Assembly (NCBI GenBank): GCA_023487865.1
Contig: JAMDBG010000032.1
Span: forward strand, 1 to 59,242
Length of the DNA stretch: 59,242 nt
Reading direction: 5' to 3'
Origin: Deltaproteobacteria bacterium
GTDB lineage: Bacteria > Desulfobacterota > Syntrophia > Syntrophales > UBA5619
In this document: positions 1,804 to 57,200 of the stretch, piece by piece
How positions within the stretch are numbered: the first letter of the stretch is position 1
How the letters are laid out: every line of letters begins with the position of its first letter
Position numbers and translations under genes: made by a program
The notes under the pieces: model-generated
What the model saw: only the letters and a program-made list of their open reading frames with translations
Database searches by the model: none
What the model was told of the DNA's origin: nothing

Positions 1804-3105
1804 TCATGCTTCTTCTCCGAAAACCCTCTTGAAGATGAAATCCACATGGGTGAGAAATTTTTCGACCTTGAATGCATTGGCCAGATCCTCCGGTTTGAGC
1901 TTCGCAATCACCTCTTCATCCCTGAGAAGCAACTCACGGAACTCAATCCCCTCCTGCCACGATCGCATCGCATTGCGCTGGACAATGGCGTAGGCCCCTT
2001 CCCTGGAGATCCCCTGTTCTATCAACTTCAGCAGGACCATCTGTGAAAAGATCACTCCTTTGGTCATCTGAAGATTCTCGAGCATTTTTTCTGGATAGAT
2101 GACGAGCTGTGAAATCAATCCAGTGAAACGGGTTAACATGAAATCGAGGAGGATCGTAGCATCCGGTCCGATGATTCGCTCCACTGAGGAATGGCTGATA
2201 TCCCGCTCATGCCAGAGGGCGATATCTTCGAAGGCAGACAATGCATAAGAACGCATTAGGCGGGAAAGTCCGGATAGATTTTCCGACAGGACGGGATTTC
2301 TTTTATGGGGCATGGCGGAAGATCCCTTCTGTCCCGGGGAAAAATACTCCTCCGCCTCTCGCACCTCGGTCCGCTGGAGAAGGCGAATCTCCTGGGAAAA
2401 CTTATCCAGGGAAGAGGCAATGATGGCCAGGGTCGTGAAGTATTCAGCGTGGCGGTCTCTCTGGACAATCTGCGAAGAGACTGGGGCAGGCCTTAATCCC
2501 AGTCTCCTGCAGACATATGTTTCTATTCCGGGATCGATGAACGAGAATGTTCCCACCGCCCCGGAGAGTTTTCCCGTACTGATTGTCTCTCTGGCTCGGA
2601 TCATCCTCTCCCGGTTTCTTTCCATTTCGCTGTACCAGATTGCCATCTTCAAGCCGAACGTGATCGGTTCCGCATGTATCCCGTGCGATCGACCGATCAT
2701 GATGGTATTTTTATGATCGATGGCCTTCTTTTTAAGCGCAGCAAGAAGGGCATCCAGATCCTCAATAAGGATATCGGCGGCTTCGCGCAGGAGAAGGGCC
2801 AGAGAGGTATCGAGGACATCCGAAGAGGTCATTCCCCTGTGAAGGAAGCGGCCGTCTTCGCCGACTTTTTCCGTCACAGAGGTGAGGAAGGCAATGACGT
2901 CATGTTTCGTGGTCTTTTCAATCTCATCAATCCGGTTTACATCGAATCCTGCCCTTTCTCTGATGTTTTTAAGGGAGGCTAAAGGAATTTCTCCCCGCTC
3001 GGCCATAGCTTCACAGGCCAGAATTTCAATATCCAGCCACTTCCGGTAACGGTTCTCCGGACTCCAGATCGCGGTCATTTTTCCCCTTGCATATCTTGGT
3101 ATCAC
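1804..3105 (-). CDS. purB: adenylosuccinate lyase
   Basis: 433-aa ORF with the fumarate-lyase signature GSSAMPHKRNP. PurB-like N-terminus MIPRYARGKMTAIWSPENRYRKWLDIE. Confidence 0.9.
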   Translation of the reverse strand: MIPRYARGKMTAIWSPENRYRKWLDIEILACEAMAERGEIPLASLKNIRERAGFDVNRIDEIEKTTKHDVIAFLTSVTEKVGEDGRFLHRGMTSSDVLDTSLALLLREAADILIEDLDALLAALKKKAIDHKNTIMIGRSHGIHAEPITFGLKMAIWYSEMERNRERMIRARETISTGKLSGAVGTFSFIDPGIETYVCRRLGLRPAPVSSQIVQRDRHAEYFTTLAIIASSLDKFSQEIRLLQRTEVREAEEYFSPGQKGSSAMPHKRNPVLSENLSGLSRLMRSYALSAFEDIALWHERDISHSSVERIIGPDATILLDFMLTRFTGLISQLVIYPEKMLENLQMTKGVIFSQMVLLKLIEQGISREGAYAIVQRNAMRSWQEGIEFRELLLRDEEVIAKLKPEDLANAFKVEKFLTHVDFIFKRVFGEEA

Positions 3106-3288
3106 TGCTTCCTCCTGTTAGACCCGACACAACGTGTGTCAACGCTTTCACCTTTTCCTGATTGATAAAACTCGAATATTTAGGAAATCTGATATATATT
3201 TTTCAATGTATTATGACTCAAGATGGGAGTCAAGGATTTTGCACTGTGGGAAAGATGATTTGCTTCATATTTAATTACCATTAAAATA

Positions 3289-5274
3289 TTGACAAATATG
3301 ACCTCTCGCCGTATTTCTTACCCCTCATCTCATTACACCGATGAGAAGCGAAAGGTAGAGCTAGGTCGCATGATGTTTGACGATGTCGATTCCGGATGGG
3401 AAAACCATGTGGTGGCCCCCGAGACTTTTCTCTCTCGGATAGAACCGGGCATGAGTATCTTTCTCGGAACAGGCGTGGCCGAGCCGAGGACCATTGTAAA
3501 AAAACTGATGACGTCGGAGATGAATAATTTGACCGATCTCGAACTGGTTCAGATTGTCAGTCTCGGCGACGCCATCTCTTTTAAAAATAACGCCGGAGAC
3601 CATAAATTCCGCCTCAAAACTTTCTTCGCAGGTTGGCTCGCAAGTGAGGCAATCACCTCCGGTTCTGTCGATATGATCCCCTGTCGGTTTTCTCAGATTC
3701 CAAGACTGGTCGAGTCCGGAGCGATCCGCGTGGATGTCGCCTTTGTCCAGATCACTCCTCCAGACAGGGCAGGTTATGCCAGCCTCGGTGTATCGGTGGA
3801 CGTGGCCAAATACGCTATGGAGCGGGCCTCCATAGTTGTCGGTGAAATCAACAGCCTCGTTCCTCGAACGATGGGCAATACATTCGTCCACGTTGATGAT
3901 TTCGATTACTTGGTACGGGCCACTGAACCTCCGATCTACTTCCCCCGTTGGCCGGTCGATGACGTCATCGACCGGGTTGCAGCCAATGTCGCGTCCATTA
4001 TAGAAGATGGCAGTTGCATCGCCTTTTACTCCGGAGCCCTTTTCGAGGCACTGGGTCGGCATCTGGCTAACAAACGCCATCTCGGCGTGCATACTTACTT
4101 CTTTACGGATGCCCTCATGGACCTGATCAAATGCGGCGCGGTAACCAATAGAAGAAAGAATCATTTCCGCGACAAATCTCTAACCGCTTACGCGCAAGGA
4201 ACCCCAGAACTGATGCGGTGGCTGCATCGTAATCCTCTGGTTGAGTTCCAGGGGATTGATGTTGTCTCCGATCATCAACGGATAAGTCTCAACGATAGGA
4301 TGATCGCTATCCTCCCCGCTAGGAAAGTCGATCTCACAGGTGGCATCGCCCTGCATGTGGGCAAGGGTAATGTTACACCAAGCCCTGGCCAGGCACAGGA
4401 ATTCTTTGCCGGAGCTGAGCATTCTCGTTACGGACGGACCGTGTTTGCCCTTCCCAGCCGTAATCTGAAAAGGCAATCCAACATCCTTCTGTCTGTGGAG
4501 GAGTTCCCCAATCAGTTCACCAACCGCGAATCACTTGACCTTGTTGTAACAGAATATGGAATCGTCTCGATGACCGGAAGAACTGTGCGTGAGCGTGCCC
4601 AGGCTCTTATAGATATCGCTCATCCAGATGATCGGGCGGATTTGATTCGGCAGGCGAAAAAGGCCAATATCCTCTATGCAGATCAGATCTATCTATCGGA
4701 CTCTGGCTCTCTCTATCCGGAAAAACAGGTTCATACTCACGATTTCAAAGGAGCACTGACCGTGAAATTTCGCGCGATCAGGCCCTCCGATGAGGAGGAG
4801 ATGCGAAAGCTCTTTTACCGTTTTTCTGATACATCAGTCTACTACCGCTATTTCAGTCCGATCAAGACCATGCCCCACCGTAAGATGCAGGAGTATGTCA
4901 ACATCGATTACCAGCGAATTATGTCCATCGTCGGAATTACTGATCTGTTGGGATCGGAACGGATCATCGCAGAAGGTCGTTACGTTCGTCACCACAACCT
5001 TCCCGGTGCCGATGTAGCTTTTGTTGTAGATGAAAATTACCAGGGGCGGGGTATCGCCTCATTCCTGTTCGAAATTCTCATCCGCGCCGCCCGTGAGCAG
5101 GGAATTAAATGGTTTACAGCAGATGTAATCGCCGACAACAAAGCCATGCTCAAAGTCTTTGAGAAGGCCCCCTTTCCGATCAGTGCCGTCATGGAATCCG
5201 GTATCTATAACCTCTCGATCCCCTTCAACGATTCCGGAGAGCCGCCTGCGCACTCGAATACGGTAAAACCCTAA
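3289..5274 (+). CDS. acetyl-CoA hydrolase/transferase-like domain (degenerate) fused to a C-terminal Pat-type GNAT acetyltransferase domain
   Basis: 661 aa; TTG start at 3289 or ATG at 3298. The N-terminal ~480 aa is collinear with the paralogue at 9397 and with ACH/4-hydroxybutyrate CoA-transferase-type proteins. The C-terminal ~160 aa (FRAIRPSDEEEM..YYRYFSP..IDYQRIMS..QGRGIAS) resembles the GNAT domain of Pat/PatZ lysine acetyltransferases. Confidence 0.75.
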   Translation: MTNMTSRRISYPSSHYTDEKRKVELGRMMFDDVDSGWENHVVAPETFLSRIEPGMSIFLGTGVAEPRTIVKKLMTSEMNNLTDLELVQIVSLGDAISFKNNAGDHKFRLKTFFAGWLASEAITSGSVDMIPCRFSQIPRLVESGAIRVDVAFVQITPPDRAGYASLGVSVDVAKYAMERASIVVGEINSLVPRTMGNTFVHVDDFDYLVRATEPPIYFPRWPVDDVIDRVAANVASIIEDGSCIAFYSGALFEALGRHLANKRHLGVHTYFFTDALMDLIKCGAVTNRRKNHFRDKSLTAYAQGTPELMRWLHRNPLVEFQGIDVVSDHQRISLNDRMIAILPARKVDLTGGIALHVGKGNVTPSPGQAQEFFAGAEHSRYGRTVFALPSRNLKRQSNILLSVEEFPNQFTNRESLDLVVTEYGIVSMTGRTVRERAQALIDIAHPDDRADLIRQAKKANILYADQIYLSDSGSLYPEKQVHTHDFKGALTVKFRAIRPSDEEEMRKLFYRFSDTSVYYRYFSPIKTMPHRKMQEYVNIDYQRIMSIVGITDLLGSERIIAEGRYVRHHNLPGADVAFVVDENYQGRGIASFLFEILIRAAREQGIKWFTADVIADNKAMLKVFEKAPFPISAVMESGIYNLSIPFNDSGEPPAHSNTVKP

Positions 5275-5426
5275 TCCGTACATGATCTCGCGGATCCCAT
5301 TGCAGGCATCCCTCATGAGCGAAAGCGAGCTCCTCGAATTACCCAAATCCATGTTGAATTATAAAATGTGACATGTTAGAGGTTATCCAACAATCGTTTA
5401 TTTGATATCGAATCGGGGGAGTAGGA

Positions 5427-7127
5427 ATGAAGAATTATAGCAAGTGGGTTGCCTGCCTTTTATGTATTTTTATTCTGGTCCCGTCATTGTGGGCAAAAGA
5501 GAAAAGAAGTGTCGCCGTCCTTCCTTTTTCTATCCATAGTGCGGAAAACATCGATTATATCCGACGTGGTATCAGCGATATGCTCTCCTCACGTATCTCT
5601 GTCGGTGAGAGGATAGAGGTCATCAGCCCGGATGCTATATCGACCATCCTGAAGGATACGGGTGGGAAAGAGCTTGCCACTACCGATATCTATAATCTTG
5701 GGAAAAAACTCAATGCGGATTTCGTGGTCTGGGGAAGCATAACCAAGATCGGCAACAGCTTGAGCATCGACGGAAAATTGGTTGATATCTCCACCCAAAA
5801 AGCAGCAGTGACGATTACGTCTCAGAGTCAGAACATGGATGAGGTGATCCCGAAGATCAATGATTTTGCCCGGAGGATCGAAACCCACATCGTTGGTACG
5901 CCATTACCAAGTGCAACGACTTTGGCCGCCCCAAAAGAGATCGTTGCTTCCCCGAAACCGTCCGCCCAGATGGTACGGGAATCGGAGATCATCTCCGGAA
6001 TGAAAAGCAGCAAGAAGGGAACCTTCACCGCGTCCATCAATCCAGATTTCATCAATGCCGCCCAACCTGTCGACAGCAAGAGTTTCTGGAAAAGCCAGCA
6101 ATTCTCAAACGAATTTAAGGGGATGGATATAGGGGACGTCAACGGTGATGGACTAAATGAAACAGTCATCATTGATTCACACACTGTCTTAATCTATCAA
6201 AAAAAAGGAAGTGAGTTCAAACTGGTTCAGCAGCTTGTTGGAAAATCATATCAAAACTATATAAGTGTCGACGTAGCCGATATTAACAGGAATGGCATTA
6301 AGGAGATCATCATTTCAAATTACGCCGGTGGGATTGTCGATTCTTTTATCATCGAATTCCGCAATGGAAATTTCGTCACTATCGCCTCCAATCTCCGCTG
6401 GTTTATGAGGGTCATCGATAATTCCTCTGGGGTGCCGATACTTTTAGGTCAGAGAAGGGGTATGGAGAAGCCTTTTGATACCCCGATTTATGAAATCCGA
6501 TGGCAGGGCGGGGAATATCAGGAAGGGCAGAAAATGCGCATACCGGAAGGCCTTTCAGTTTATGGACTTACCCTGGAAAAACTTGGATCAGGTGGAGCAG
6601 AAAAGATCATCGTCCTTAACCAAGATGATTATCTGAATATCTTCGAACAGACTGACAAACCCCTTTCCAGAGTCGCCATCTTCGGCGGCAGCAAAGAGTT
6701 GCTCTGGAAGAGTGAAGATGTGTTCGGCGGGAGCAATACCTATATTGATCCCATAAACGAGGGCAGGAAAGAAGTATCCGAAAATGACAATGTGATCACT
6801 TACATCAATCTTCGGATTGTCTCGTATGATACGAACAAGGATGACAAGCGTGAATTTATCGTTGTCAAAAATATCTCCACTGCTGCACGTATGTTCCAAC
6901 GAATTAAGCTCTTCACCTCCGCCGAAGTTTATAATCTGGAATGGGACGGTGTGGGTATGGTCGAAAACTGGCGAACTAAAAGGATTAGCGGCTATGTCGC
7001 GGATTATCAGTTCAAAGATATCAATAATGACGGAGAGAACGAAGTTGTCCTTGCGCTTGTACTCGCAGCGGGTGGAACCTCAAACGGAAGAAGCGTTGTC
7101 GTTTCCTACTCCCTTAAAGGTCAATAG
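5427..7127 (+). CDS. secreted protein with an LpoB/CsgG/FlgO-like N-terminal domain and FG-GAP-type repeats
   Basis: 566 aa. Signal peptide MKNYSKWVACLLCIFILVPSLWA. N-terminal VAVLPFS...ADFVVWGSITKIGNSLSIDGKLVD pattern. Three DxNxDGxxE-type loops (DVNGDGLNE, DINRNGIKE, DINNDGENE). RBS GGGGGAG upstream. Confidence 0.6.
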   Translation: MKNYSKWVACLLCIFILVPSLWAKEKRSVAVLPFSIHSAENIDYIRRGISDMLSSRISVGERIEVISPDAISTILKDTGGKELATTDIYNLGKKLNADFVVWGSITKIGNSLSIDGKLVDISTQKAAVTITSQSQNMDEVIPKINDFARRIETHIVGTPLPSATTLAAPKEIVASPKPSAQMVRESEIISGMKSSKKGTFTASINPDFINAAQPVDSKSFWKSQQFSNEFKGMDIGDVNGDGLNETVIIDSHTVLIYQKKGSEFKLVQQLVGKSYQNYISVDVADINRNGIKEIIISNYAGGIVDSFIIEFRNGNFVTIASNLRWFMRVIDNSSGVPILLGQRRGMEKPFDTPIYEIRWQGGEYQEGQKMRIPEGLSVYGLTLEKLGSGGAEKIIVLNQDDYLNIFEQTDKPLSRVAIFGGSKELLWKSEDVFGGSNTYIDPINEGRKEVSENDNVITYINLRIVSYDTNKDDKREFIVVKNISTAARMFQRIKLFTSAEVYNLEWDGVGMVENWRTKRISGYVADYQFKDINNDGENEVVLALVLAAGGTSNGRSVVVSYSLKGQ

Positions 7128-7132
7128 AAAGA

Positions 7133-7159
7133 TTGACAATATGCAAATACTGTTATAAA
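7133..7159 (+). promoter_or_regulatory. possible sigma-70 promoter upstream of the tRNA (TTGACA-N15-TATAAA)
   Basis: TTGACA at 7133-7138 and TATAAA at 7154-7159. The spacer is only 15 nt, and the site lies ~85 nt upstream of the tRNA. Confidence 0.3.
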
Positions 7160-7243
7160 AAACTTTGTTAAGTGAAAAAAAAGGGCTCTCAGCAGCAATA
7201 ACAAACCGTACATGCGGTGCGACGAGGCGCCCATAAAGACGCA

Positions 7244-7320
7244 GGCGGTGTAGCTCAGCCGGTTAGAGCATACGGCTCATATCCGTAGTGTCCGGGGTTC
7301 AATTCCCTGCACCGCCACCA
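7244..7320 (+). tRNA. tRNA with CAT anticodon (elongator Met, or Ile2 if lysidine-modified), encoded CCA end
   Basis: Hand-folded cloverleaf. Acceptor GGCGGTG/CACCGCC, D arm GCTC..GAGC, anticodon stem TACGG/CCGTA with loop CTCATAT, T arm CGGGG-TTCAATT-CCCTG. The G1-C72 pair argues against an initiator. Confidence 0.9.
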
Positions 7321-7327
7321 GATATGC

Positions 7328-7359
7328 ACAAAAGCCCGGTTCACAAACCGGGCTTTTGT
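7328..7359 (+). terminator. rho-independent terminator after the tRNA
   Basis: Hairpin ACAAAAGCCCGGT-tcacaa-ACCGGGCTTTTGT followed by T-containing sequence. Confidence 0.7.
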
Positions 7360-7382
7360 GTACTTGTCACAGAGGTCAACAA

Positions 7383-8345
7383 ATGGAAGAACCATTCCTA
7401 CCTGCTGTGTGGGCCAGAAGTCCCCATCTGCAAACCATCTTCGGCAGTCTAAGAATGCGGGCCTTGGGAAAAAACGAGATGATGGACGTCTCGCAGGAGA
7501 TGATCGTTGATGCCGGATCGGGTGTGCGTCTTTTAGGCTACCATTCTCGACAACTTGTCCGGCAGCCGAAAGGATTGATCATTCTCCTGCATGGCTGGGA
7601 AGGAAGTACCGATTCCACTTACATCATCTCTACAGGTCGTTTTTTTTACCGCCAAGGGTATGACATCTTCCGGCTCAACCTAAGGGACCATGGGAAAAGT
7701 CACCACCTCAACCAGGGACTCTTTCACGGCGCTTTGATCGATGAAACCAACCATGCGGTTGAGAATATCTCCCGTCTCCTGTCTGCAGGACCATCCTATC
7801 TTATAGGGTTTTCCCTGGGCGGAAATTTCGCTCTCCGTATTGCCCTCCGGCAATCCATCACCCCCATTGCCAATCTCAAGGAAGTCTTCTGCATAAGCCC
7901 TGCTTTGGATCCCTATAAATCCACACTAGCCATCGACGCCGGCTTTCCCGTCTATCGTCATTACTTTCTCACCAAATGGAAGCGATCTCTCCGGAAGAAA
8001 CAACGTTGCTTCCCAGACATCTATCACTTTGACAATATTCTCCATCACAACACCTGCATGGGACTGACTGAAGCCATCATGCCTTATTATACGGAATGGG
8101 GACATTATATGGATTACTTCCGCCGGTACACCCTGACTGGAGACGTCTTGTCACAACTGCCCATGAGGGTCACGATCTTCACTGCGCAAGACGATCCATT
8201 CATAGCTATCGATGATTTTCACTCTCTGCCGCGCAATGGATATCTCCGACTCTCCGTTCAGAAATATGGCGGTCATTGCGGTTTTCTGGATCCGTTTCCC
8301 CGTGGATGCTGGTATGAACGGACCATTGCCGATCTCATAGAATAG
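7383..8345 (+). CDS. alpha/beta-fold hydrolase, YheT/ABHD-like
   Basis: N-terminal ARSPHLQTIFGS motif typical of the YheT-type family. HGWEGS oxyanion region. Nucleophile elbow GFSLGGN. I prefer the ATG at 7383 over the ORF-track start 7356, which overlaps the tRNA terminator. Confidence 0.75.
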   Translation: MEEPFLPAVWARSPHLQTIFGSLRMRALGKNEMMDVSQEMIVDAGSGVRLLGYHSRQLVRQPKGLIILLHGWEGSTDSTYIISTGRFFYRQGYDIFRLNLRDHGKSHHLNQGLFHGALIDETNHAVENISRLLSAGPSYLIGFSLGGNFALRIALRQSITPIANLKEVFCISPALDPYKSTLAIDAGFPVYRHYFLTKWKRSLRKKQRCFPDIYHFDNILHHNTCMGLTEAIMPYYTEWGHYMDYFRRYTLTGDVLSQLPMRVTIFTAQDDPFIAIDDFHSLPRNGYLRLSVQKYGGHCGFLDPFPRGCWYERTIADLIE

Positions 8346-8365
8346 AATGAAGGGGGATGTGCTAA

Positions 8366-9232
8366 ATGGCTTTAGGTCCCGAACTCTTCAAACATCGGGA
8401 GAAATTTCTAGCGCGGGTTATCGAAAAACTTGGTTTATATCCTTCCAATTTCCTATCGGCATCAAAACAGATAAGTGATTCGCGAAAAACTGTTCTCCCT
8501 CGCCAGGCAGCGGGGATTCTGATCCCCCTGCTCTTTCGCTCATTTTCCTCCAACGGTCAGTCGGATGGGCAGTTCGTGTTTCAGCTGATCAAGCGCTCTT
8601 CACGCGTGTCACAACCTGGTGATCTGAGCTGTCCGGGAGGCATGGTCCATCCGATTCTGGACCGCCTGCTCCGACTACTGCTGCTTTATGGTCCCTTTTC
8701 GGTCATCCGCGGTCCGGCACGTGCATATGCATCACAAAGAGAGCCAGCCATCCGGAAAATTCAGGCCCTTTTTCTTGCAAATGCACTGCGCGAGTCTTGG
8801 GAAGAAATTGGACTTTCACCCTGCCGCGTCCATTATCTTGGACCGATCCCCACGTATAGTCTGACACTTTTCAGGCGCACGATTTTTCCGCTGGCGGGAT
8901 ATGTCGAGCAACCTGGCTCATTACGACTGAACCACGAGGTGGAGAAGATCGTGGAAATCCCTTTGGCCTCGTTCTACCGGGAGGATCTCATCGGCTGTCA
9001 TACTTTCTCCCTACCCAAATCGACCGACTCCAACGTCCCGCAATCCTTCCAATACCCGTGCCTAATCCACTGTGATTCTGATGGCAGGGAGGAGATCCTC
9101 TGGGGAGCCACCTTTCATATTCTCACACAATTCCTACGGATCGTAATGGATTACCGTCTGTCTGACTGGAGAAAAGGTCGCATCGTTCAAAGAACCTTTC
9201 ATCCCGATTATCTGAAGGGAAGGTTTTCGTAA
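8366..9232 (+). CDS. Nudix-family hydrolase, CoA pyrophosphatase (NudL/NUDT7)-like, with a split Nudix box
   Basis: LIKRSSRVSQPGDLSCPGG resembles the CoAse signature preceding the Nudix box. The REUxEExGU half is present as LRESWEEIGL, but ~36 aa further downstream than canonical. Confidence 0.55.
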   Translation: MALGPELFKHREKFLARVIEKLGLYPSNFLSASKQISDSRKTVLPRQAAGILIPLLFRSFSSNGQSDGQFVFQLIKRSSRVSQPGDLSCPGGMVHPILDRLLRLLLLYGPFSVIRGPARAYASQREPAIRKIQALFLANALRESWEEIGLSPCRVHYLGPIPTYSLTLFRRTIFPLAGYVEQPGSLRLNHEVEKIVEIPLASFYREDLIGCHTFSLPKSTDSNVPQSFQYPCLIHCDSDGREEILWGATFHILTQFLRIVMDYRLSDWRKGRIVQRTFHPDYLKGRFS

Positions 9233-9396
9233 ACCTCCTTGGCTGCAGGGCGTGGTTCATGGATTGAAGCTCCCGTTCATATTCCACTTTTTCTTGACAG
9301 AGAAACGGTATAATGGTTAGTATACCTTATTAAAGAAATATGTTCCCGTTATCCGGACCATATTGTAATGGGTTGCGGGTTGTATTGGAAAGCAAG

Positions 9397-11286
9397 ATGA
9401 AATCGCTGGAAGACTGGAAAAACCTATATCCGGAAAAGTTTGCCGAGGAAGAAGTGGTTTTCAGTCATATCCGTCGCGGCGATCACATCTTTGTCGCCTC
9501 AGGGTGCGGTGAGCCTCAATATCTTGTTCGAGCCCTTGTCCGTTATGTGGAATCCCATCCCAAGGCATTTTTTGACGCAGAGATCATTCATGTCTATTCC
9601 TTCGGAATAGCGCCATATACCGATCCAAAATTCAAACGCTACTTTCGCCATAACTCGTTTTTTATTGGAAACAACACCCGCGACCCCGTCAACCAGGGAA
9701 TGGCCGACTATACCCCGGTCTCTCTTTCCCAAGTGCCTGCACTGATTAAGAGCGGTTCTGTCCAAATCGATGTATCACTTGTGCAAACCTCTCTACCCGA
9801 TGAACACGGCTATTTGAGTCTCGGCATCAGTGTTGACATGGTCAAGGCGGCAACGGACAGATCATCTATGATTATTGCCCAGGTCAACAAATACATGCCC
9901 CGTGTTCACGGTGACGGATTCATCCACATCAAGGATGTCAACTTCATCATCCGCCATGACGAACCACTCTTGGAACTCCCGGCCATTCCCTTTAACGAAA
10001 CGACACAACGTATTGGCAACTATGTCGCCAGGCTTGTTCAAGACGGTGATACCATCCAGGTTGGATATGGAGGATTGCCGAATGCAGTCATGGCCAACCT
10101 GTACAATAAAAAGCATCTGGGAGTTCACACCGAATTACTCAGTGATGGCCTTGTAGAACTGATCAAGGCCGGAGTCATCGACAATTCGAGGAAAAAACTG
10201 AATCCGGGGAAAACTGTCGCCGCATTCTCGATGGGAAAGAAGGAAACTTACGAATTTCTTAACGACAACCCATCCATTCTGTTTCGAACTATCGATTATA
10301 CGAACGACCCGCTTAAGATTGCCCAGCAGGACAATATGGTAGCCATCAACAGCTCCCTGGAAATCGATCTCACTGGCCAGGCTACATCGGATTCGATCGG
10401 CGGAACGTTTTACAGTGGTATTGGCGGTCATCATGATTTCATGCGTGGCGCCCTTCTGTCGAATGGTGGCCGGACTATCCTCGCGATGAAGTCCACGGCC
10501 GTGAATGAAACGGTCTCACGAATCGTTCCCTCTTTGCGTGAATCTGCTGGTATCACTTTAAATCGTGGTGATGCCAGATATGTAGTGACTGAATATGGCA
10601 TCGCCTATCTCCACGGGAAAAATATTCGGGAAAGAGCGATGTCGCTCATTTCCATTGCCCATCCCAAGTTTCGCCCCTGGCTTATCGCTGAAGCAAAAAA
10701 ACGGGGGATTATATACCGCGATCAGGCTTTCATCCCGGGGAAAAGTGGCGAATACCCCGAGAATTTAGAAACTCACCGGACTACGAATACTGGTTTGCAG
10801 ATCTTCCTCCGCCCTGTCAAAATCAACGATGAACCCTTGATCAAAGATTTCTTTTATTCGCTGTCCGACAAGAGTCTCAATCGACGTTTCCTTTCCATGC
10901 GGAAGGACATGCCACACGAACGTCTGCAGGATTTTGTCATCATTGATTATACCAAAGAGGTTGTCATACTCGCCATCATCGGTTCCGAGGATAGTGAGGT
11001 GATTGTCGGTGTTGGTCAATACGGCATTGACGAAGAATCCCATACCGCAGAGGTTGCCTTTGCCATTCGCGACGACTATCATAACCGCGGCATCGGGACG
11101 GTAATGCTCTCCTACCTGACCTACATCGCCCGCCGGGAAGGGCTGTTGGGCTTCACTGCGGAAGTACTAATCGACAACAAACCGATGCTCCATGTATTTG
11201 AAAATGGCGGTTTCGATATTACGAGAAAAAGTGATGCAGGGGTGTATGATTTGAAAATGGCCTTCAAAGAAGAGGTGAAACAATAA
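9397..11286 (+). CDS. acetyl-CoA hydrolase/transferase domain (catalytic motifs intact) fused to a C-terminal Pat-type GNAT domain
   Basis: ATG at 9397 (MKSLEDWKNLY) with GGAAAG upstream. Family motifs IQVGYGGLPNAV, LGVHTELLSDG, NSSLEIDLTGQ and SGIGGHHDF. C-terminal GNAT (LRPVKINDEPL..LNRRFLS..IDYTKEV..HNRGIGT) is paralogous to 3289..5274. Confidence 0.8.
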   Translation: MKSLEDWKNLYPEKFAEEEVVFSHIRRGDHIFVASGCGEPQYLVRALVRYVESHPKAFFDAEIIHVYSFGIAPYTDPKFKRYFRHNSFFIGNNTRDPVNQGMADYTPVSLSQVPALIKSGSVQIDVSLVQTSLPDEHGYLSLGISVDMVKAATDRSSMIIAQVNKYMPRVHGDGFIHIKDVNFIIRHDEPLLELPAIPFNETTQRIGNYVARLVQDGDTIQVGYGGLPNAVMANLYNKKHLGVHTELLSDGLVELIKAGVIDNSRKKLNPGKTVAAFSMGKKETYEFLNDNPSILFRTIDYTNDPLKIAQQDNMVAINSSLEIDLTGQATSDSIGGTFYSGIGGHHDFMRGALLSNGGRTILAMKSTAVNETVSRIVPSLRESAGITLNRGDARYVVTEYGIAYLHGKNIRERAMSLISIAHPKFRPWLIAEAKKRGIIYRDQAFIPGKSGEYPENLETHRTTNTGLQIFLRPVKINDEPLIKDFFYSLSDKSLNRRFLSMRKDMPHERLQDFVIIDYTKEVVILAIIGSEDSEVIVGVGQYGIDEESHTAEVAFAIRDDYHNRGIGTVMLSYLTYIARREGLLGFTAEVLIDNKPMLHVFENGGFDITRKSDAGVYDLKMAFKEEVKQ

Positions 11287-12321
11287 ATGCACAAGTTTGT
11301 AGTTACATCACTGCGTCAGGGCGCAGGCAAAACAAGCATGATCATCGGCATTGCGAAGGCCTTGAACAGATCAATTGGTTATATCAAACCCTTGGGGGAA
11401 AGGTTTCTTTATCGGAAAAAAAGACTTTGGGACTATGACGCCGCCCTAGTCACCAATATCTTCGGCCTGAAAGAGAATCCGGAAGAGATGAGTATCGGTT
11501 TTCACCATTCGAAGCTCCGCTACATATTTGACGAAAAGACCACTGGTGAAAAACTTCATGAACTTCTGGATAGCGTTGGGGCAGGAAAAGATATTTTCTT
11601 GGCCGAATGCGGTAAGGATATCACTTACGGCACCTCCGTCCACCTGGACGCCATTTCGGTTGTCGAGCAGCTCGACGCCCAGCTGATTATCGTGACCAGT
11701 GGCGATGAGGATACAATCCTTGACGATTTGATCTATCTCAAAAAATATGTCCGTCCACGTGAATATCGATTAAAGGGAATCATCATCAACAAGGTAGCCA
11801 ATGTAACTGATTTTTGCAGTACGAGACTTCCCCAGATCAACAAGTACGGAATTGATGTGCTTGGCATTGTCCCCTTTAACAAGGAGCTCTCTTATTTCTC
11901 CTTGAGTTATTTAGCCGACCGCCTGTTCGCCAAGGTCATCACCGCTGAAGATAATCTGAATCGCACCGTCAAGAATACCTTCATCGGTGCCATGTCGGTG
12001 GACGTTGCCCTGAAGGACCCCCTATTCCGGGAAGAATCCAAGATTGTCATCACAAGCGGCGACCGGAGTGACATGATTACGGCTGCCATGGAGAGCAATG
12101 CCCTAGCGGTCATCCTTACCAATAACATTCTACCGCCAGCCGACCTTATTGCACAGGGAACCCGACTGACGATCCCCCTGCTTCTGGTTTCTGCTGACAC
12201 ATACGAGACCGCCCGACAGATCGAAAACATGGAACCCCTTTTGACAAAAAACGACAGCAACAAAATCACCCTGATAGAAGAGATGGTCAAGAACCACATC
12301 AACCTCGAAACCCTGAAGTAG
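11287..12321 (+). CDS. phosphotransacetylase N-terminal-like protein (P-loop/BioD-like plus DRTGG domain), no PTA catalytic domain
   Basis: 344 aa. N-terminal P-loop-like VTSLRQGAGKTS. C-terminal VITSGDRSDMITAAMESNALAVILTNN matches the DRTGG motif. The ATG directly abuts the stop of the upstream gene (TAAATG). Confidence 0.7.
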   Translation: MHKFVVTSLRQGAGKTSMIIGIAKALNRSIGYIKPLGERFLYRKKRLWDYDAALVTNIFGLKENPEEMSIGFHHSKLRYIFDEKTTGEKLHELLDSVGAGKDIFLAECGKDITYGTSVHLDAISVVEQLDAQLIIVTSGDEDTILDDLIYLKKYVRPREYRLKGIIINKVANVTDFCSTRLPQINKYGIDVLGIVPFNKELSYFSLSYLADRLFAKVITAEDNLNRTVKNTFIGAMSVDVALKDPLFREESKIVITSGDRSDMITAAMESNALAVILTNNILPPADLIAQGTRLTIPLLLVSADTYETARQIENMEPLLTKNDSNKITLIEEMVKNHINLETLK

Positions 12322-12335
12322 TTGTGAGGTATTAC

Positions 12336-13691
12336 ATGAATCCTGAAATCTTTCGAGAGTATGATGTTCGCGGTGTTGTCAACAGAGACCTTAACCCTGA
12401 CGTAGTCTATCTCCTGGGTCGGGCAATTGGGACCTATGCTATACACCACAATGTTCGGCAGATGAGTTTGGGTAGGGATTGCCGTATTAGCTCGGAAACC
12501 TATCAGGATGCAGTCAGCAGAGGATTAATGGCCGCGGGTGTGGATATCATCGATATTGGCCTGTGTGCTACTCCTATGCTTTATTTCTCTATCCGTCATC
12601 TCGGAGTCGACGGCGGCGTCATGATTACAGGAAGCCACAATCCGCCTGACTTCAACGGCTTCAAGATCTGTATCGGTCCGGATACGATTTACGGGGAAGA
12701 GATCCAGAATTTGAGGCTGATTATCGAAAGCGAGACCTACACGGCAGGTAAAGGAAACATTCGGCGAGAGGAGATCTCCGGCAAATACCAAGATTATCTT
12801 TTCCGGAATGTCTCGGTTGGAAAAAATTTGAAAGTGATCGTTGACGCAGGAAACGGAGTTGGAGGTTTCTTTGCTCTGCCCATCCTTCGCCGCTACGGGT
12901 GCGATGTAACCGATCTATACTGCGATCCGGATGGCCATTTCCCCAACCACTTTCCCGATCCAACCATCCCGGAAAATCTCCGGGAGCTGATACGTCTCGT
13001 AAGCTCAGGGAAGGCTGACGCCGGTATCGCTTACGACGGGGATGCCGACCGGCTCGGCGTGATCACCGACCGTGGAGAAGTTCTCTGGGGTGACGAATTG
13101 CTGCTCCTCTTTGCCCGCTACATATTGAAAAAGAATCCCGGCGCAGCAATCATCGGTGAGGTCAAATGCTCCCAAAAACTTTACGACGACATCACAGAGA
13201 ATGGCGGACGGGCAATTATGTGGAAGGCCGGTCACTCGTTGATCAAGGGAAAAATGAAAGAAGAGAAGGCTCTTCTTGCAGGAGAGATGAGCGGACATAT
13301 CTTTTTCGCCGATCGTTATTTCGGCTATGACGACGCCATCTATGCCTCCCTCCGAATGCTTGAGATCCTTTCTGAAACCGGGATGAAACTGAGTGAACTC
13401 CTCGCTGATGTTCCCAAGACCTTCACGACGCCCGAGATCCGTGTGGACTGCCCAGACCGGATCAAGTTCCGTGTTGTCGAGGCCGTCAAGGAACGCTTCC
13501 TTAAGACCCATGATATCATCTCGATTGACGGGATCCGGATACCTTTCGGCGATGGATGGGGATTGCTGAGAGCCTCGAACACCCAGCCGGTTCTTGTTCT
13601 CCGTTTCGAAGCCACCTCGGAGGAACGCCTCAGCGCCATCCGCAGCAACATTGAAGGGGTTCTGAACGGGGTTTTGAAGTCTTTTAACTGA
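12336..13691 (+). CDS. phosphomannomutase/phosphoglucomutase
   Basis: Active-site TGSHNP, Mg-binding DGDADR and sugar-binding GEMSGH motifs. ATG at 12336 with GTGAGG RBS; the ORF-track GTG at 12324 is less likely. Confidence 0.9.
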   Translation: MNPEIFREYDVRGVVNRDLNPDVVYLLGRAIGTYAIHHNVRQMSLGRDCRISSETYQDAVSRGLMAAGVDIIDIGLCATPMLYFSIRHLGVDGGVMITGSHNPPDFNGFKICIGPDTIYGEEIQNLRLIIESETYTAGKGNIRREEISGKYQDYLFRNVSVGKNLKVIVDAGNGVGGFFALPILRRYGCDVTDLYCDPDGHFPNHFPDPTIPENLRELIRLVSSGKADAGIAYDGDADRLGVITDRGEVLWGDELLLLFARYILKKNPGAAIIGEVKCSQKLYDDITENGGRAIMWKAGHSLIKGKMKEEKALLAGEMSGHIFFADRYFGYDDAIYASLRMLEILSETGMKLSELLADVPKTFTTPEIRVDCPDRIKFRVVEAVKERFLKTHDIISIDGIRIPFGDGWGLLRASNTQPVLVLRFEATSEERLSAIRSNIEGVLNGVLKSFN

Positions 13692-13860
13692 GTAGTCCTT
13701 CCGCGGAAGCATGTATACTCGGCTACAATTTTCAAGTGTCCATTGTCATTACACTTCCGCGATTGTGACTTGCAATGACGGTTGGTCATTTCAGCCTGGC
13801 ATCTGAATCATTAAAAAAGCAGAATACACATCTATGTTTGCTATCTGATTGTTTTACTGG

Positions 13861-14625
13861 CTATGGGAGAAGGATAATACTTATTCGTCTATTCCTAAGA
13901 TCTTTGGTATTTTCTTTGATGAGAGGATCCTGGTCAGCATAACCAACGACCTTGGCGATTCTGTTGGGATCAACCCCATTGTTTTCAAGCTCCCTTCTGG
14001 CCGCGGACGCTCTTGATGTGGACAGTTCCCAGTTCGTTTTTTGAGCGCCCTTGAATGGAGCAGAGTCCGTATGACCCTCAATGGTGATGCGATTCGGCTT
14101 TTCTCTGAGATTTTCGGAAACCAATCTGATGATCTGACGTGCCTTTTCCGTCGGTTCAGCACTGCCGGACCGAAATATCTCACTGCCCTCGTTATCGACA
14201 ATCTGAATTTTAAGACCCTCTTTGGTCGTTTCAATCAAAACCTGATTTTTAAGAGCTTGCAGTTTATCATCAATGGCGCTCCGCATTATCTTTGCCAATT
14301 CTTCGGTAGTCACTTTTTTTTCCGCTTTCACCCTGGCTGATTCAGTCTGCACAGAACGCCCCACATTTAAAATGCCGTTTGATTTATCCAAAATGGATGT
14401 ACCGGACTGTTGAGGTTGATCCTTAAATATGCTGAATGTATTAAAATATTGAGATAGCGCAGCTTTGCTTTCAGGTGAAGTCATGGACAGCAGCCACAGG
14501 AGGAGAAAAAAAGCCATCATGGCTGTTACGAAGTCCGCATAGGCAACTTTCCATGAGCCGCCGTGATGCCCCCCATGTGTTTTTTTGTTCACTTTGCGAA
14601 TGATGATTTTTGAACGATCTTCCAT
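13861..14625 (-). CDS. motB: flagellar stator protein MotB (OmpA-like C-terminus)
   Basis: WKVAYADFVTAMMAFFLLLW transmembrane segment with the conserved Asp. C-terminal GHTD..NWELSTSRA..NRRI OmpA-like peptidoglycan-binding motif. Confidence 0.9.
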   Translation of the reverse strand: MEDRSKIIIRKVNKKTHGGHHGGSWKVAYADFVTAMMAFFLLLWLLSMTSPESKAALSQYFNTFSIFKDQPQQSGTSILDKSNGILNVGRSVQTESARVKAEKKVTTEELAKIMRSAIDDKLQALKNQVLIETTKEGLKIQIVDNEGSEIFRSGSAEPTEKARQIIRLVSENLREKPNRITIEGHTDSAPFKGAQKTNWELSTSRASAARRELENNGVDPNRIAKVVGYADQDPLIKENTKDLRNRRISIILLP

Positions 14626-54293: not shown

Positions 54294-57200
54294 TTATACC
54301 CACCCACTGTAGGCGGCATTGATCTGGCCAGTAAGCCAACTACTCTGGCTCTGTATTTTGCTTAAGGCCATTTCCATGGCCACGAAACGGTTCACCATCG
54401 CTTCCTGCTTCAGGGCCAACCGTGCTTCCATCTCGCTGATCTGCGTAGCATAACTGTCCACGCTATCCTGCAGAGATTCTTGCTTGAACGATGCATAGCC
54501 GCTGACGGAGTCGGTAATGTCAAAAAGGGTGTTATCGAGGAGCGCGGCTATGCCGAGCGTAAGCATTACATTGCCCGCATCGATATTGTTCGTTGTTCCC
54601 GTATATTTTATAGACAATCCGTCGGTATTGGCATTACCAACAGCACCGGTCAGAGTCTGGCCGGACCCGGTTGCCGTTTCCCCGTTGATGGTACCGGTTA
54701 CATCCAGGCCGCTATAGGTTCCGTATGTTAGGCCTAATGCCAAACCTTGGGAAATAGTGAAGCTGCTGCCGCTGCCGTAGTCGGTGTTCCTGAGCACGAG
54801 ATGACCGCTGCCGTCGTCGTCCGCGATCATGGCGAGAGCATAGCGTCCCACTATGCCGCCCGTGTTTGAGGTAAGCGCTGTTCCGAAATCAAGTCCCCTT
54901 CCCACGGGTTCGGTTATGTCCAGGGCCAGTTGACTTGTCCCCGTAAACTTATCGGTCAGCGTAATGCGCCCCGAAGAGCTGATTGAGGCCGTCACCTGGT
55001 TGGAGTAGGCGGTTTCTATCGCGGAAAGCAAATCCTGCACCGTGTCGGTCGCCGTGTTCGTGATCGTATAACTCCCCGATATCGCCGTTCCGCTCCGGGA
55101 GGTTCCGGAAAAGTTGATGACATCTCCGTTTTGCAGTGTCGTACCGTAGATGTTATCCAAAGCGGTTCCCGCCGTGATTGCTGTCACATTGTCGTCCTGT
55201 TTTAACTCCTGGCTTCCGGTGAGCGTTTGCGTATAGACGGCATTGAATTCCGTGTTTATGGCGTTCACAATGTCGGCTATGATCATGCCGCCCGTGACGG
55301 CAATGGTTGCCGCTCCGCTGCCCTGGGCTACTGTCAGCGTGTCTGTGACACCGCCGGCGGAGAGGTCTACGCTGCCGGTCGTTGTGGCTTGTGTTGCGGC
55401 GGTGGTGATGTGAACGGTATAATCCCCCGCCTTTGTGTCTTTCGTAGAGGCTATATACGCGAGGTCGGTGCTGGAAGTGGCTCCCTGGACCGTAAAGAGG
55501 GCCTTCACATCGTTGAAGTTGGTCTGCAGGTATCCCGTCAGCAAGGTATCGTCGATGGTCAAGAGCTGGTTGTTGTCAAGGTTGATGCCGATCATACCCA
55601 TGATGGAGAAATTACTGTTCACCCCCCAGATGGTCTGGGTCGTTAACGCGGAAATATCGGATTTGATGGAGGAGAGGGTCCCGTCGCCAAAGAGAACGCC
55701 GCCAGTTGTCATTTTTTCCGTATCGTAGGAAAATTGGGTATTGATGTAAGACATCAGGTCATTGTATTTGCCGACATAATCTTGAATACTCTTCTTAATA
55801 GTGTCCAGGTCTCGCCCCAATGTGAGGTTGATGGTGGTCGCGGCGTCTTCCTTGATGAGATTCAAGGTCGTGCCGGTAATCACATCCTTGATGGTATTGG
55901 AAGCATTGGTAACGGTCACTCCGTCCAAGACGATGGCGGCATCTTCACCGGCAATGATCTGTCTCTGGCGGTCGGCAGCAGTGCCGAAATCCGCATCCGC
56001 CGTCACGAATTCAAGCTTAGAGTTCGTATCCGCGATATGGTCGGTAAGGTTCACCGCAAGTACACTTCCACCGGACAGGTCGTCCACCCGGATCTTGCCG
56101 TCATTGGTCACATAGGCCAAGACGTTCCCATAACGCGTCTTGATTTCATCAAGGAGATCCTGGACGGTCGTGGAGCTTGTAATGCTGAAATTGGTGTTGA
56201 CTGCGGCGTTCGAGGTATCCGTCCCCGTCAGAGTGAGATAATCGCCGGCAGGAAATCCGCCGGTTGTAAAGGTATTGTAGCCGTCAATATCCACGAGAAC
56301 CGTGGCGGCTGTAATATTTGTGCCGTTGGAAGTCATTGAGACGCCCGAAACCTTGCCTGAGACGTCTGTGCTGCCCCGGTCCAGTATCCCCAGGGTATTT
56401 AGGATGTTGTTTGCATCGCTGAAGGTCTGGGTGCCGTCGATTTGCAGGCGATAATAGGTTATGTTATCGACACTCTCTTCGATGACGGAAGCGCTTGCCC
56501 CGGTCGGAGCCGCCGTGTTGATAGCTATTTTGATGTCCGTGAGCGACATACTGGATAGATTGATGGCTACGCTCTTGTCGCCGATGGTGACGCTACCGGA
56601 TTCTCCCGCAGCGAGGCCCAATAGCGAGCCGACGGCCGACGTTGCCGAAGTAAAGCGATCTCCCTGCGCGCCCAGGGTGATGGCGTTTTTTATCGTGGCC
56701 GCCTGATTGTCTTTCCAGCCGAAGGCCTGCACCAGATTTACAGATGAGCCGTTCAGGAGGCTGATACCCTCGGCGCCGGTTTTATCGCTGGTGAGGATCA
56801 GCCGGTAATCGTTGGTGCCAAAATTAATGACGGAGGCAGTTACCCCGGAAGGGCTGCTTCCTGTGTTCAGATTATTAATGCTGTTCGCGACGCCGGCAAG
56901 CGTATCCGTCGCGTTGGTGGTTACAACCTTTCCGTTGATGACGATGTCACCGGCATAGCCCGCCCCCAGCGCTGTTGTCTGGCTTGTAAAAGGGTTAGAG
57001 GAGAGCTTCTGTGACTGGGCCAGGTTCGTGACCTTGAGACTGTAGGTGCCGGGTGCTGATGTGGTGGTGGTGGAAACGGAAAGCAGGTCGCTTCCCTTGA
57101 CGGTGCTGCTGTTCGTGGACATAGTTGCGGCGAAGATCTGGAAGATATCAGGTTTTTTCAGCCCCGCAACCGAAGTCTTGAGGGCCAAAAGCTTGGAATT

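Follow-up and report, generated by a model that had tools for sequence, protein, structure and literature searches.

The 59,242-nucleotide contig JAMDBG010000032.1 (GenBank assembly GCA_023487865.1) of a deltaproteobacterium of the order Syntrophales, which was analysed over its whole length (the window), carries two genes, here termed A and B, in which an N-terminal acetyl-CoA hydrolase/transferase (ACH) domain, i.e. the fold of the family I CoA-transferases, is fused to a C-terminal GNAT domain. We consider it probable, with ample room for doubt, that the encoded proteins are Pat-family acetyltransferases in which the ACH fold replaces the dead domain that resembles ADP-forming acyl-CoA synthetases (ACDs), and that they act on acetate/acetyl-CoA enzymes by reversible lysine acetylation. 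The functional claims are drawn from sequence, predicted structure and gene context. New here are the residue-level difference between A and B, the family-wide decay of the transferase active site, the distribution of the fusions over many phyla, and their genomic linkage with ACDs, with proteins of the histone deacetylase (HDAC) family, with proteins that resemble the N-terminal half of phosphotransacetylase (Pta-N-like), and with AMP-forming acetate-CoA ligase (Acs). The two genes and their parts are as follows.

3373..5274, + strand: gene A, ACH-fold and Pat-type GNAT fusion, 633 residues (Pfam PF02550, PF13336 and GNAT; orthologues of 633 residues)
3433..4656, + strand: AbfT-type ACH/CoA-transferase fold of A, predicted to be catalytically dead, well conserved (Pfam coordinates)
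4324..4326, + strand: codon AAA for Lys318 of A, at the position of the catalytic Glu of family I CoA-transferases (alignment to AbfT structures)
4381..4392, + strand: SPGQ of A, where the GXGG motif sits (alignment)
4714..5220, + strand: Pat-type GNAT region of A, Pfam core 4777-5169 (PDB matches: GNAT of SlPatA 1.4e-17, PatZ 1.1e-15, MsPat 3.2e-15)
5011-5013, + strand: GNAT acid Asp547 of A, at the position of PatZ E809 (alignment)
5041-5058, + strand: GNAT P-loop QGRGIA of A
9397..11286, + strand: gene B, ACH-fold and Pat-type GNAT fusion, 629 residues (Pfam; homologues of 630-634 residues)
9427..10695, + strand: AbfT-type CoA-transferase fold of B with intact active-site signature (PDB 3eh7 1.3e-117, 9vag 1.5e-117)
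10360-10362, + strand: catalytic Glu322 of B (Glu in 118/119 B-type homologues)
10417-10428, + strand: GIGG of the GXGG motif of B (GIGGHH; both Gly in 118/119 homologues, G344 in 118/119 and G345 in 119/119)
10750..11259, + strand: Pat-type GNAT region of B, Pfam core 10801-11214 (PDB sequence search, Foldseek)
11050-11052, + strand: GNAT acid Glu552 of B, equivalent to PatZ E809 (alignment)
11080-11097, + strand: GNAT P-loop HNRGIG of B

A first-pass annotation, made from the letters of the DNA, had proposed an ACH-GNAT fusion in both open reading frames (ORFs), and the Pfam search returned exactly these domains: the ACH N domain (PF02550; 69 bits in A, 149 bits in B), the ACH C domain (PF13336; 139 and 208 bits) and, C-terminal to both, GNAT models (Acetyltransf_1; 33 and 39 bits), all above their cut-offs. 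CoA_binding_2, Succ_CoA_lig and ATP-grasp_5 domains were not found by Pfam in either A or B, and the accompanying proposal that the ACD-like regulatory module of known Pat enzymes has been replaced by a different CoA-binding fold thus holds, with ACH in its place. The frame of A is open from 3289 (ORF 3289-5274, plus strand) and has ATG codons at 3370 and 3373, and that of B is open over 9340-11286 on the plus strand. Because homologues are 630-634 residues long, the real start of A is probably at 3370 or 3373 and not at 3289, where the first-pass annotation had placed it, whereas its start for B, 9397, is probably right. Over the full length, GNAT included, A shares 35% identity with B; the two are old paralogues within one family and were already fusions before they diverged.

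We put at practically nil the chance that faulty gene calling or assembly produced the fusions, or that the genes are in decay. Both ORFs are uninterrupted, and full-length homologues occur in independent assemblies: the 120 best-listed matches for A and for B span the whole query, as do the best 80 of at least 589 relatives (42-83% identity) found in a scan of GTDB that covered one genome per species and was built on a 14-sequence alignment. Moreover, the AlphaFold2 (AF2) model of full-length B is confident (pLDDT 93.1, pTM 0.89), with two modules in a compact arrangement, and both domains are under conservation; the artefact reading was rejected on these grounds.

Of the GNAT models in NCBIfam, that of the mycobacterial 'acetyltransferase Pat' scores highest on the GNAT domain (83 and 74 bits in the two proteins), against 23 bits for RimI, so that the domain is not closest to a small-molecule type of GNAT. 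When the last 189 residues of B were compared with the sequences in the PDB (phmmer), the top eight matches were all Pat-type (1e-16 to 5e-10), including the GNAT of S. lividans PatA (1e-16), E. coli PatZ (5e-14), M. tuberculosis Rv0998 and M. smegmatis Pat, and small-molecule GNATs appeared only at E >= 1e-3. The alignment with PatZ spans the domain from the N-terminal YPxxLE extension through the glutamate of AE(F/V)A, which is PatZ E809. The structure comparison gave the same picture: with the AF2 model of the B GNAT alone (pLDDT 93), Foldseek ranks 1-10 were all Pat-type with TM-scores (query-normalised) of 0.60-0.85, the six best being 0.75-0.85, and were led by PatZ 9it0 (1.9e-18, TM-score (query-normalised) 0.85, root mean square deviation (rmsd) 2.0) and SlPat 4u5y (4.3e-17), whereas other GNATs began at 3e-9 with TM-scores of 0.51-0.67. 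With the full-length model of B the best matches to the GNAT part were again SlPat 4u5y (TM-score (target-normalised) 0.93) and PatZ. NCBIfam, the PDB sequence search and Foldseek thus all rank Pat-type enzymes first, as the first-pass annotation had anticipated, and by sequence and by model the GNAT domain is Pat-type, with Pat-type lysine acetyltransferases (KATs) as its nearest solved relatives.

The residues involved were followed through 240 homologues, 121 A-type and 119 B-type, all with 67% identity or more and aligned with MAFFT. The Glu equivalent to PatZ E809 and MsPat E234 is present in B and in all 119 B-type proteins; in A a conservative Asp stands in its place, and the A-type proteins have Asp in 105 cases, Glu in 10 and another residue in 6. 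The central Gly of the P-loop is invariant in all 240, and the acetyl-CoA loop (pattern Q/R-x-x-G-x-G/A) reads QGRGIA in A and HNRGIG in B.

In the N-terminal part, A and B share the two-lobed ACH fold and differ in what is left of its active site. The best PDB matches of A are the 4-hydroxybutyrate CoA-transferases 9vag (7.5e-73) and 3eh7 (5.5e-69), which makes A a more distant member of this group than B (1e-117), and the ~450-residue ACH part of the B model superposes on AbfT 3gk7 (Foldseek E 1e-54, TM-score (target-normalised) 0.93, rmsd 1.4), in line with the relationship to AbfT that had been suggested. The Glu of xE[IV]DLTGQ (the position of RipA E249) and the GXGG(Q/H) motif occur in B only. 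In A the catalytic segment reads ARKVDLTG, against AIEVDLTGQ in the AbfT structures, with Lys taking the place of the catalytic Glu in 121/121 A-type proteins, and SPGQAQEF is found at the GXGG site, the second Gly being present in 0/121 and replaced by Q, H or E. The first-pass annotation had treated the two proteins as equivalents; with a dead site in A and an intact one in 118/119 B-type proteins, this does not hold. Among the orthologues of A the mean pairwise identity is 76-78% in the ACH domain and 72% in the GNAT; the dead domain is thus at least as conserved as the GNAT and is kept for some non-catalytic purpose. Judged by its residues, the ACH domain of A is a conserved pseudoenzyme, and B keeps the transferase signature.

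This difference opens the possibility that the fusions, and mainly those of the B type, are writers that generate their own donor: the transferase would use acetyl-CoA and a free acid to make a non-acetyl acyl-CoA (e.g. butyryl-, crotonyl- or 4-hydroxybutyryl-CoA) for the fused GNAT, and the lysine marks would report the free-acid pool. Such a mode of action would extend the Pat-type reading rather than replace it, and it draws on the retention of Glu322 and GXGG in the B type (118/119 each), the compact B model (pTM 0.89) and the acyl-CoA:acetate transferases of the AbfT/RipA type as relatives. In addition, relatives in the genus Syntrophus have many kinds of acyl-lysine, and the study that describes them names no acyltransferase (PMC8942843). 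We nevertheless hold it to be rather unlikely, given what was found in the family at large.

A search with B against 1.84 billion cluster representatives gave 19,281 matches at E <= 1e-3, the best 150 of which comprise 70 full-length fusions, each from a distinct 50%-identity cluster, and 47 stand-alone ACH proteins, some of whose short entries may be fragments. The catalytic Glu is kept in 26 of the 70 fusions, and Glu together with GG in only 15, as compared with 28/47 in the stand-alone set (Fisher p = 4e-5). In the GNAT, on the other hand, the acid (E or D) is found in 67/70 and the P-loop Gly in 66/70. With the acid kept in 67/70 fusions and Glu plus GG in 15/70, it is the GNAT that stays constant as the catalytic part, whereas decay has struck the transferase site repeatedly; since 55 of the 70 diverse fusions are without Glu plus GG, donor synthesis cannot be the general function of the family. 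The same counts bear on the idea that the fusions are mainly CoA-transferases in which the GNAT is a non-catalytic appendage that binds acetyl-CoA or acetylates its own polypeptide for regulation. The complete signature of B and its similarity to AbfT (1e-117) would fit this, but it would leave a family that preserved its appendage (67/70 and 66/70) better than its enzyme (15/70), and lost the catalytic Glu in 121/121 A-type proteins; we judge it very improbable. To see whether fusion occurred once or repeatedly, the ACH regions of 72 fusions and 47 stand-alone proteins were placed in a neighbour-joining tree; it does not separate the two groups, and its best split isolates only 31/47 of the stand-alone proteins.

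Some variants of the active site and of the architecture were also seen. In 16/47 stand-alone proteins (e.g. P0298, P0312, P0316) Gln replaces the catalytic Glu with GXGG intact, and the same combination occurs in fusions 60-65% identical to B (loci L010-L012, L018, L020, L023, L024, L033, L034). A Gln is unable to form the glutamyl-CoA thioester. Two proteins, P0248 and P0251 (~960 residues), have an N-terminal 4Fe-4S dicluster region ahead of ACH-GNAT, and in P0362 (703 residues) ACH is fused to an enoyl-CoA hydratase, without GNAT. Triple fusions of the order ACH-GNAT-Hist_deacetyl exist as well, with the deacetylase at the C-terminus (P0293, 1013 residues; P0299, 955 residues).

The relatives come, among others, from Syntrophales and other Desulfobacterota, Nitrospirota, Thermotogota, Bacillota, Acidobacteriota, Planctomycetota, Verrucomicrobiota, Chloroflexota, Spirochaetota, Fibrobacterota and Elusimicrobia among the bacteria, and from Thermoplasmatota, Methanosaeta, Methanomicrobia, Hodarchaeota (Asgard), Bathyarchaeia and Crenarchaeota among the archaea. 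On these matches the ACH-GNAT fusions are a large and widespread family that occurs in many bacterial and archaeal phyla. The existing annotation of the homologues is generic ('GNAT family N-acetyltransferase' or 'acyl-CoA hydrolase/GNAT').

For the genome context of the fusions, ORFs were called in 82 loci from many phyla, the four genes at each side of the fusion were clustered, and the cluster representatives were annotated. The commonest neighbour, in 27/82 loci and mostly adjacent on the same strand, is a ~700-residue ACD with the domains CoA_binding_2, Succ_CoA_lig, Ligase_CoA_2 and ATP-grasp_5, in which the phosphohistidine motif SHTGSLAG is kept in 22/23 full-length copies and whose best solved relatives are true ADP-forming ligases, with PatZ behind. 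Next, in 13 loci, comes a Hist_deacetyl protein of ~378 residues, which in eight of them lies immediately downstream and which resembles the class-I HDACs (HDAC8 1e-62, Rpd3, HDAC1-3). The third is a Pta-N-like protein with AAA_26 and DRTGG domains (12-15 loci); its homologues occur in 15/83 fetched loci, within ~3 kb downstream on the same strand and usually after the ACD gene in 13, and upstream of the fusion in two (L034, L015). The fourth is a bona fide Acs, found in six loci (1013 bits versus a cut-off of 657).

Two orders of these neighbours recur across phyla: fusion-ACD-PtaN in the B-like clade (60-67% identity), in bacteria and archaea, and ACD-fusion-HDAC in a clade at 42-46% identity. 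Individual cassettes of the former order were noted in L008, L009, L012, L018, L020, L026, L031 and L033, with fusions 55-67% identical to B and hosts in the Desulfobacterota, Thermotogota, Aminicenantes, Thermoplasmatota and Hodarchaeota. The presence of one three-gene cassette across both domains of life suggests horizontal spread among anaerobes. A Cytidylate_kin2-family protein of ~217-236 residues also adjoins the fusion in four loci (L078, at 9763-10413, and three others).

Systems of reversible lysine acetylation include Pat/CobB-Acs and AcuA/AcuC-AcsA. By analogy with these, a writer, an eraser and acetyl-CoA synthetases that lie side by side or are fused are the signature of such a system. 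The same neighbours could be read in another way, namely that the GNAT acylates a metabolite (a polyamine, amino acid or amino sugar) in a CoA-ester pathway, with the HDAC-family neighbours as the amidohydrolases that cleave its product. In its favour are the promiscuity of GNATs, the acetylpolyamine amidohydrolases known among HDAC-fold enzymes, and the PGM/PMM (GlmM-like) gene that follows B and recurs in nine loci. However, the nearest relatives in sequence and structure are exclusively protein KATs, and the match takes in the N-terminal extension that is part of the Pat GNAT; the HDACs encoded nearby resemble class I, with HDAC6 (class II) ranking lower and no acetylpolyamine amidohydrolase among the matches listed; and the partners are acyl-CoA synthetases, the AMP-forming Acs being the classic substrate of Pat. 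Acylation of a small molecule is in our view improbable.

In the window itself the genes around A and B are the following.

5427-7127, + strand: FG-GAP repeat protein (Pfam)
7244-7320, + strand: tRNA-Met (CAT) (Rfam 67.8 bits; ARAGORN)
7356-8345, + strand: alpha/beta hydrolase, YheT-like (Pfam, NCBIfam)
8366-9232, + strand: divergent CoA-diphosphatase-like Nudix protein (orthologue profile)
11287..12321, + strand: Pta-N-terminal-like protein, AAA_26 and DRTGG without PTA_PTB (Pfam; NCBIfam PRK05632)
12324..13691, + strand: phosphogluco/phosphomannomutase (Pfam PGM_PMM I-IV; NCBIfam PgmG 500 bits, cut-off 600)

The Pta-N-like gene follows B without a gap, its ATG coming immediately after the stop codon (TAAATG), and here as well as in locus L001 the ACD is absent from the cassette and the Pta-N-like gene directly succeeds B. 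The encoded protein matches positions 3-366 of the 708 of PRK05632 (106 bits versus a cut-off of 418), i.e. the N-terminal half of a class II Pta, and in neither Pfam nor NCBIfam was the catalytic PTA_PTB domain found in 11287-12321, so that the gene does not encode a class II phosphotransacetylase. D. vulgaris DVU3031 is a stand-alone protein of the same Pta-N-terminal-like kind (PMC4481167). Among the neighbours that the first-pass annotation had named, it is the sole recurrent partner, and its AAA_26 and DRTGG domains bear out the identification made there. The phosphomannomutase gene starts 2 nucleotides after the Pta-N-like gene and is probably in one operon with B; PGM homologues were noted in nine fetched loci (L001, L004, L025, L034, L037, L061, L064, L065, L073), which is more than 2-3 copies of this gene per genome would lead one to expect.

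The interval that separates A from B holds genes of a different nature. The first-pass annotation had seen A and B as bracketing a CoA/acetyl-CoA module with CoA-related genes, yet homologues of the FG-GAP, alpha/beta hydrolase and Nudix proteins occur near a fusion only in L001, L003 and L004, which are close Syntrophales, and in none of the other 79 loci, and the interval is not one operon because the tRNA-Met gene lies inside it. The framing of a module by A and B was rejected on both counts, and the interval genes are not counted in the conserved system because their homologues are confined to those three loci. As for the relation to CoA, the Nudix protein has some resemblance to CoA diphosphatases: its orthologue profile matches these exclusively, if weakly (AtNUDX11 2.5e-8, NUDT7 1.6e-4, a third 0.27), and RESWEEIGL and LIKRS..PGD..CPGG are visible in the sequence, with Pfam (17.8 bits) and NCBIfam (23.7 bits, cut-off 134) both below threshold. 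Nothing ties the alpha/beta hydrolase to CoA. The Nudix protein also has a ~40-residue insertion that interrupts its Nudix box between the PGG motif and RESWEEIG and is conserved in its three orthologues. An FG-GAP protein of ~570 residues follows the A-type gene in all Syntrophales loci examined (L001 4108-5817, L003 12830-14572, L004 1765-3699), including L003, a more distant locus where B is absent.

A promoter and terminator scan of 3000-14000 gave no excess over shuffled sequence, and a promoter-like site (10/12) at 9294-9323, upstream of B, was not used. The tRNA was the sole match in the window at the Rfam gathering threshold, at which no regulatory RNA was found. The remainder of the window (13861-59242) is a motility region that encodes MotA/MotB, PilZ, a PAS histidine kinase and a sigma-54 response regulator, the flagellar proteins FliF, FliG, FliK, FlgE, FlhB, FlhA, FlhF, FlgI, FlgK and FliW, flagellins, and an unusually long FliD-like cap protein (1020 residues; 54294-57356, minus strand).

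Bacterial KATs are at present divided into five types. In the published classifications (Christensen et al. 2019, PMC6456759; Lammers 2021, PMC8556138; the 2025 structural survey of PatZ, PMC12184503) the regulatory domains are ACD-like or of the cAMP, ACT or NADP+ kind, and a type with a CoA-transferase fold is absent from all three. In full-text literature we found no paper on the ACH-GNAT fusion, subscription journals being mostly outside the coverage, and neither an NCBIfam model nor a solved structure that covers it was found; it does not, then, appear to be an enzyme family that already has a name. The regulatory domains of A and B lack the homology to NDP-forming acyl-CoA synthetases that defines types I and II, and their ACH fold is not among the regulatory kinds described for type III (cAMP, ACT, NADP+). 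Nevertheless, the scheme for type III (PMC6456759) fits, because a non-ACD N-terminal domain is followed by a C-terminal GNAT. The claim that the architecture lies outside the usual classification is thereby correct in so far as no KAT scheme in the 2019-2025 reviews names it, but overstated, as type III can hold it. Going by its domains, the fusion would be a type III-like KAT with a new, enzyme-derived regulatory domain, a domain pair that annotation pipelines have recorded and that has apparently gone unstudied.

The comparison with known systems brings out what is shared. With the type I/II Pat enzymes (E. coli PatZ/YfiQ, S. enterica Pat, S. lividans PatA) the fusions have in common a homologous GNAT with the same catalytic Glu and P-loop, a large multidomain build in which the non-GNAT part stems from an acyl-CoA-handling enzyme, often without its catalytic residues, and a genomic link to acetyl-CoA synthetases. 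They differ in having a ~450-residue AbfT-type family I CoA-transferase fold instead of an ACD-like module of 700-900 residues, in that the regulatory part of the B type still looks catalytically competent, and in that a neighbouring gene often codes for a separate ACD that looks active. Of the type III KATs (mycobacterial cAMP-Pat Rv0998/MSMEG_5458, ACT-domain PatB, the NADP+-binding Kat of M. xanthus), two, MtPat and MsPat, rank high among the matches to the GNAT, but the regulatory domain of the fusions is much larger, enzyme-derived and not of the cAMP, ACT or NADP+ kind. AbfT, Yersinia RipA and AarC/Ach1 (family I, ACH type) share the fold of the ~450-residue N-terminal part, and with B also the Glu and GXGG that A is without; unlike the fusions they stand alone, with no GNAT on any solved-structure match. 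Finally, B. subtilis AcuA/AcuC, a GNAT and a class-I-like HDAC that control AcsA, resemble the many fusion loci where genes for a writer, an HDAC-type eraser and a synthetase are adjacent, although AcuA consists of one GNAT domain, from another subfamily, the window is without an eraser, and the adjacent synthetase is mostly ADP-forming.

In PatZ/Pat the ACD-like domain, which has no catalytic His, binds acetyl-CoA and allosterically activates the GNAT (PMC8556138; PMC12184503). By analogy, the ACH module of the fusions may bind acyl-CoA or CoA and so regulate and scaffold, i.e. gate, the GNAT. The GNAT would bind acyl-CoA on its Q/H-x-x-G-x-G/A loop and acylate a lysine of the target protein by means of the acid at the position of PatZ Glu809, which is Glu552 in B and Asp547 in A; B, with its intact site, may in addition catalyse acyl exchange between CoA esters and free acids. 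The neighbourhoods point to enzymes that interconvert acetate and acetyl-CoA, the ADP-forming ACD and the AMP-forming Acs, as likely targets, to the class-I HDAC-like deacetylase as the likely eraser of the lysine mark, and to the Pta-N-like protein as a likely regulatory partner of B. The architecture, the Pat-type kinship of the GNAT, the condition of the active sites, the distribution and the gene neighbourhoods are observed here; protein acetylation, its targets and sensing by the ACH domain are what we infer from sequences, models and neighbourhoods, and several observations weigh against this view. With Pat-type enzymes the GNAT shares just 25-28% identity, and A has Asp rather than Glu at the position of the general base. 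The complete transferase signature of B and its 119 close homologues would point to real catalysis, beyond sensing. No acyl-CoA synthetase or deacetylase gene was found near A or B in the window, and the choice of targets therefore rests on other genomes, most of whose fusions have 42-67% identity to B. The loci were collected with search patterns in which the catalytic position has to be E or Q, and this biases active-site counts within the loci; the active-site frequencies given above are taken from the representative set, which is free of this bias. We know of no lysine acetyltransferase that acts on an ADP-forming ACD, and the adjacency of the two genes could reflect shared metabolism and not a relation of enzyme and substrate.

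The Pat-type reading can be taken further, to a scheme that we put forward as a speculation with little probability: ACH-GNAT writers, HDAC-type erasers and Pta-N-like modulators would constitute a widespread bacterial and archaeal control of ADP- and AMP-forming acyl-CoA synthetases by reversible lysine acylation, in which the B-type module either loads itself with CoA or turns free acids into non-acetyl acyl-CoA donors, with the result that the mark tracks the acid/acyl-CoA pool. Within this scheme, the conserved Lys at the former Glu position of the A-type proteins could be acylated by bound acyl-CoA and serve as a slow sensor. If true, the scheme would supply the missing enzymatic route to the diverse acyl-lysine proteome of syntrophs.

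To our knowledge, no post-translational control of ADP-forming acetyl-CoA synthetase has been described. If the function proposed for the fusions is right, they would indicate such a control and would add a major class to the KATs. The repeated decay of the transferase site with retention of the GNAT parallels the dead ACD domain of Pat and would, by that analogy, add a further example of an enzyme fold that has been turned into a metabolite sensor. The family, whose hosts belong to many anaerobic phyla of bacteria and archaea, has a link to enzymes that produce ATP from acetyl-CoA. The study of the Syntrophus acyl-proteome called the regulation of its modifications unknown (PMC8942843), and the fusions would, again if they function as proposed, be candidate writers for the abundant acyl-lysine marks of syntrophic bacteria.

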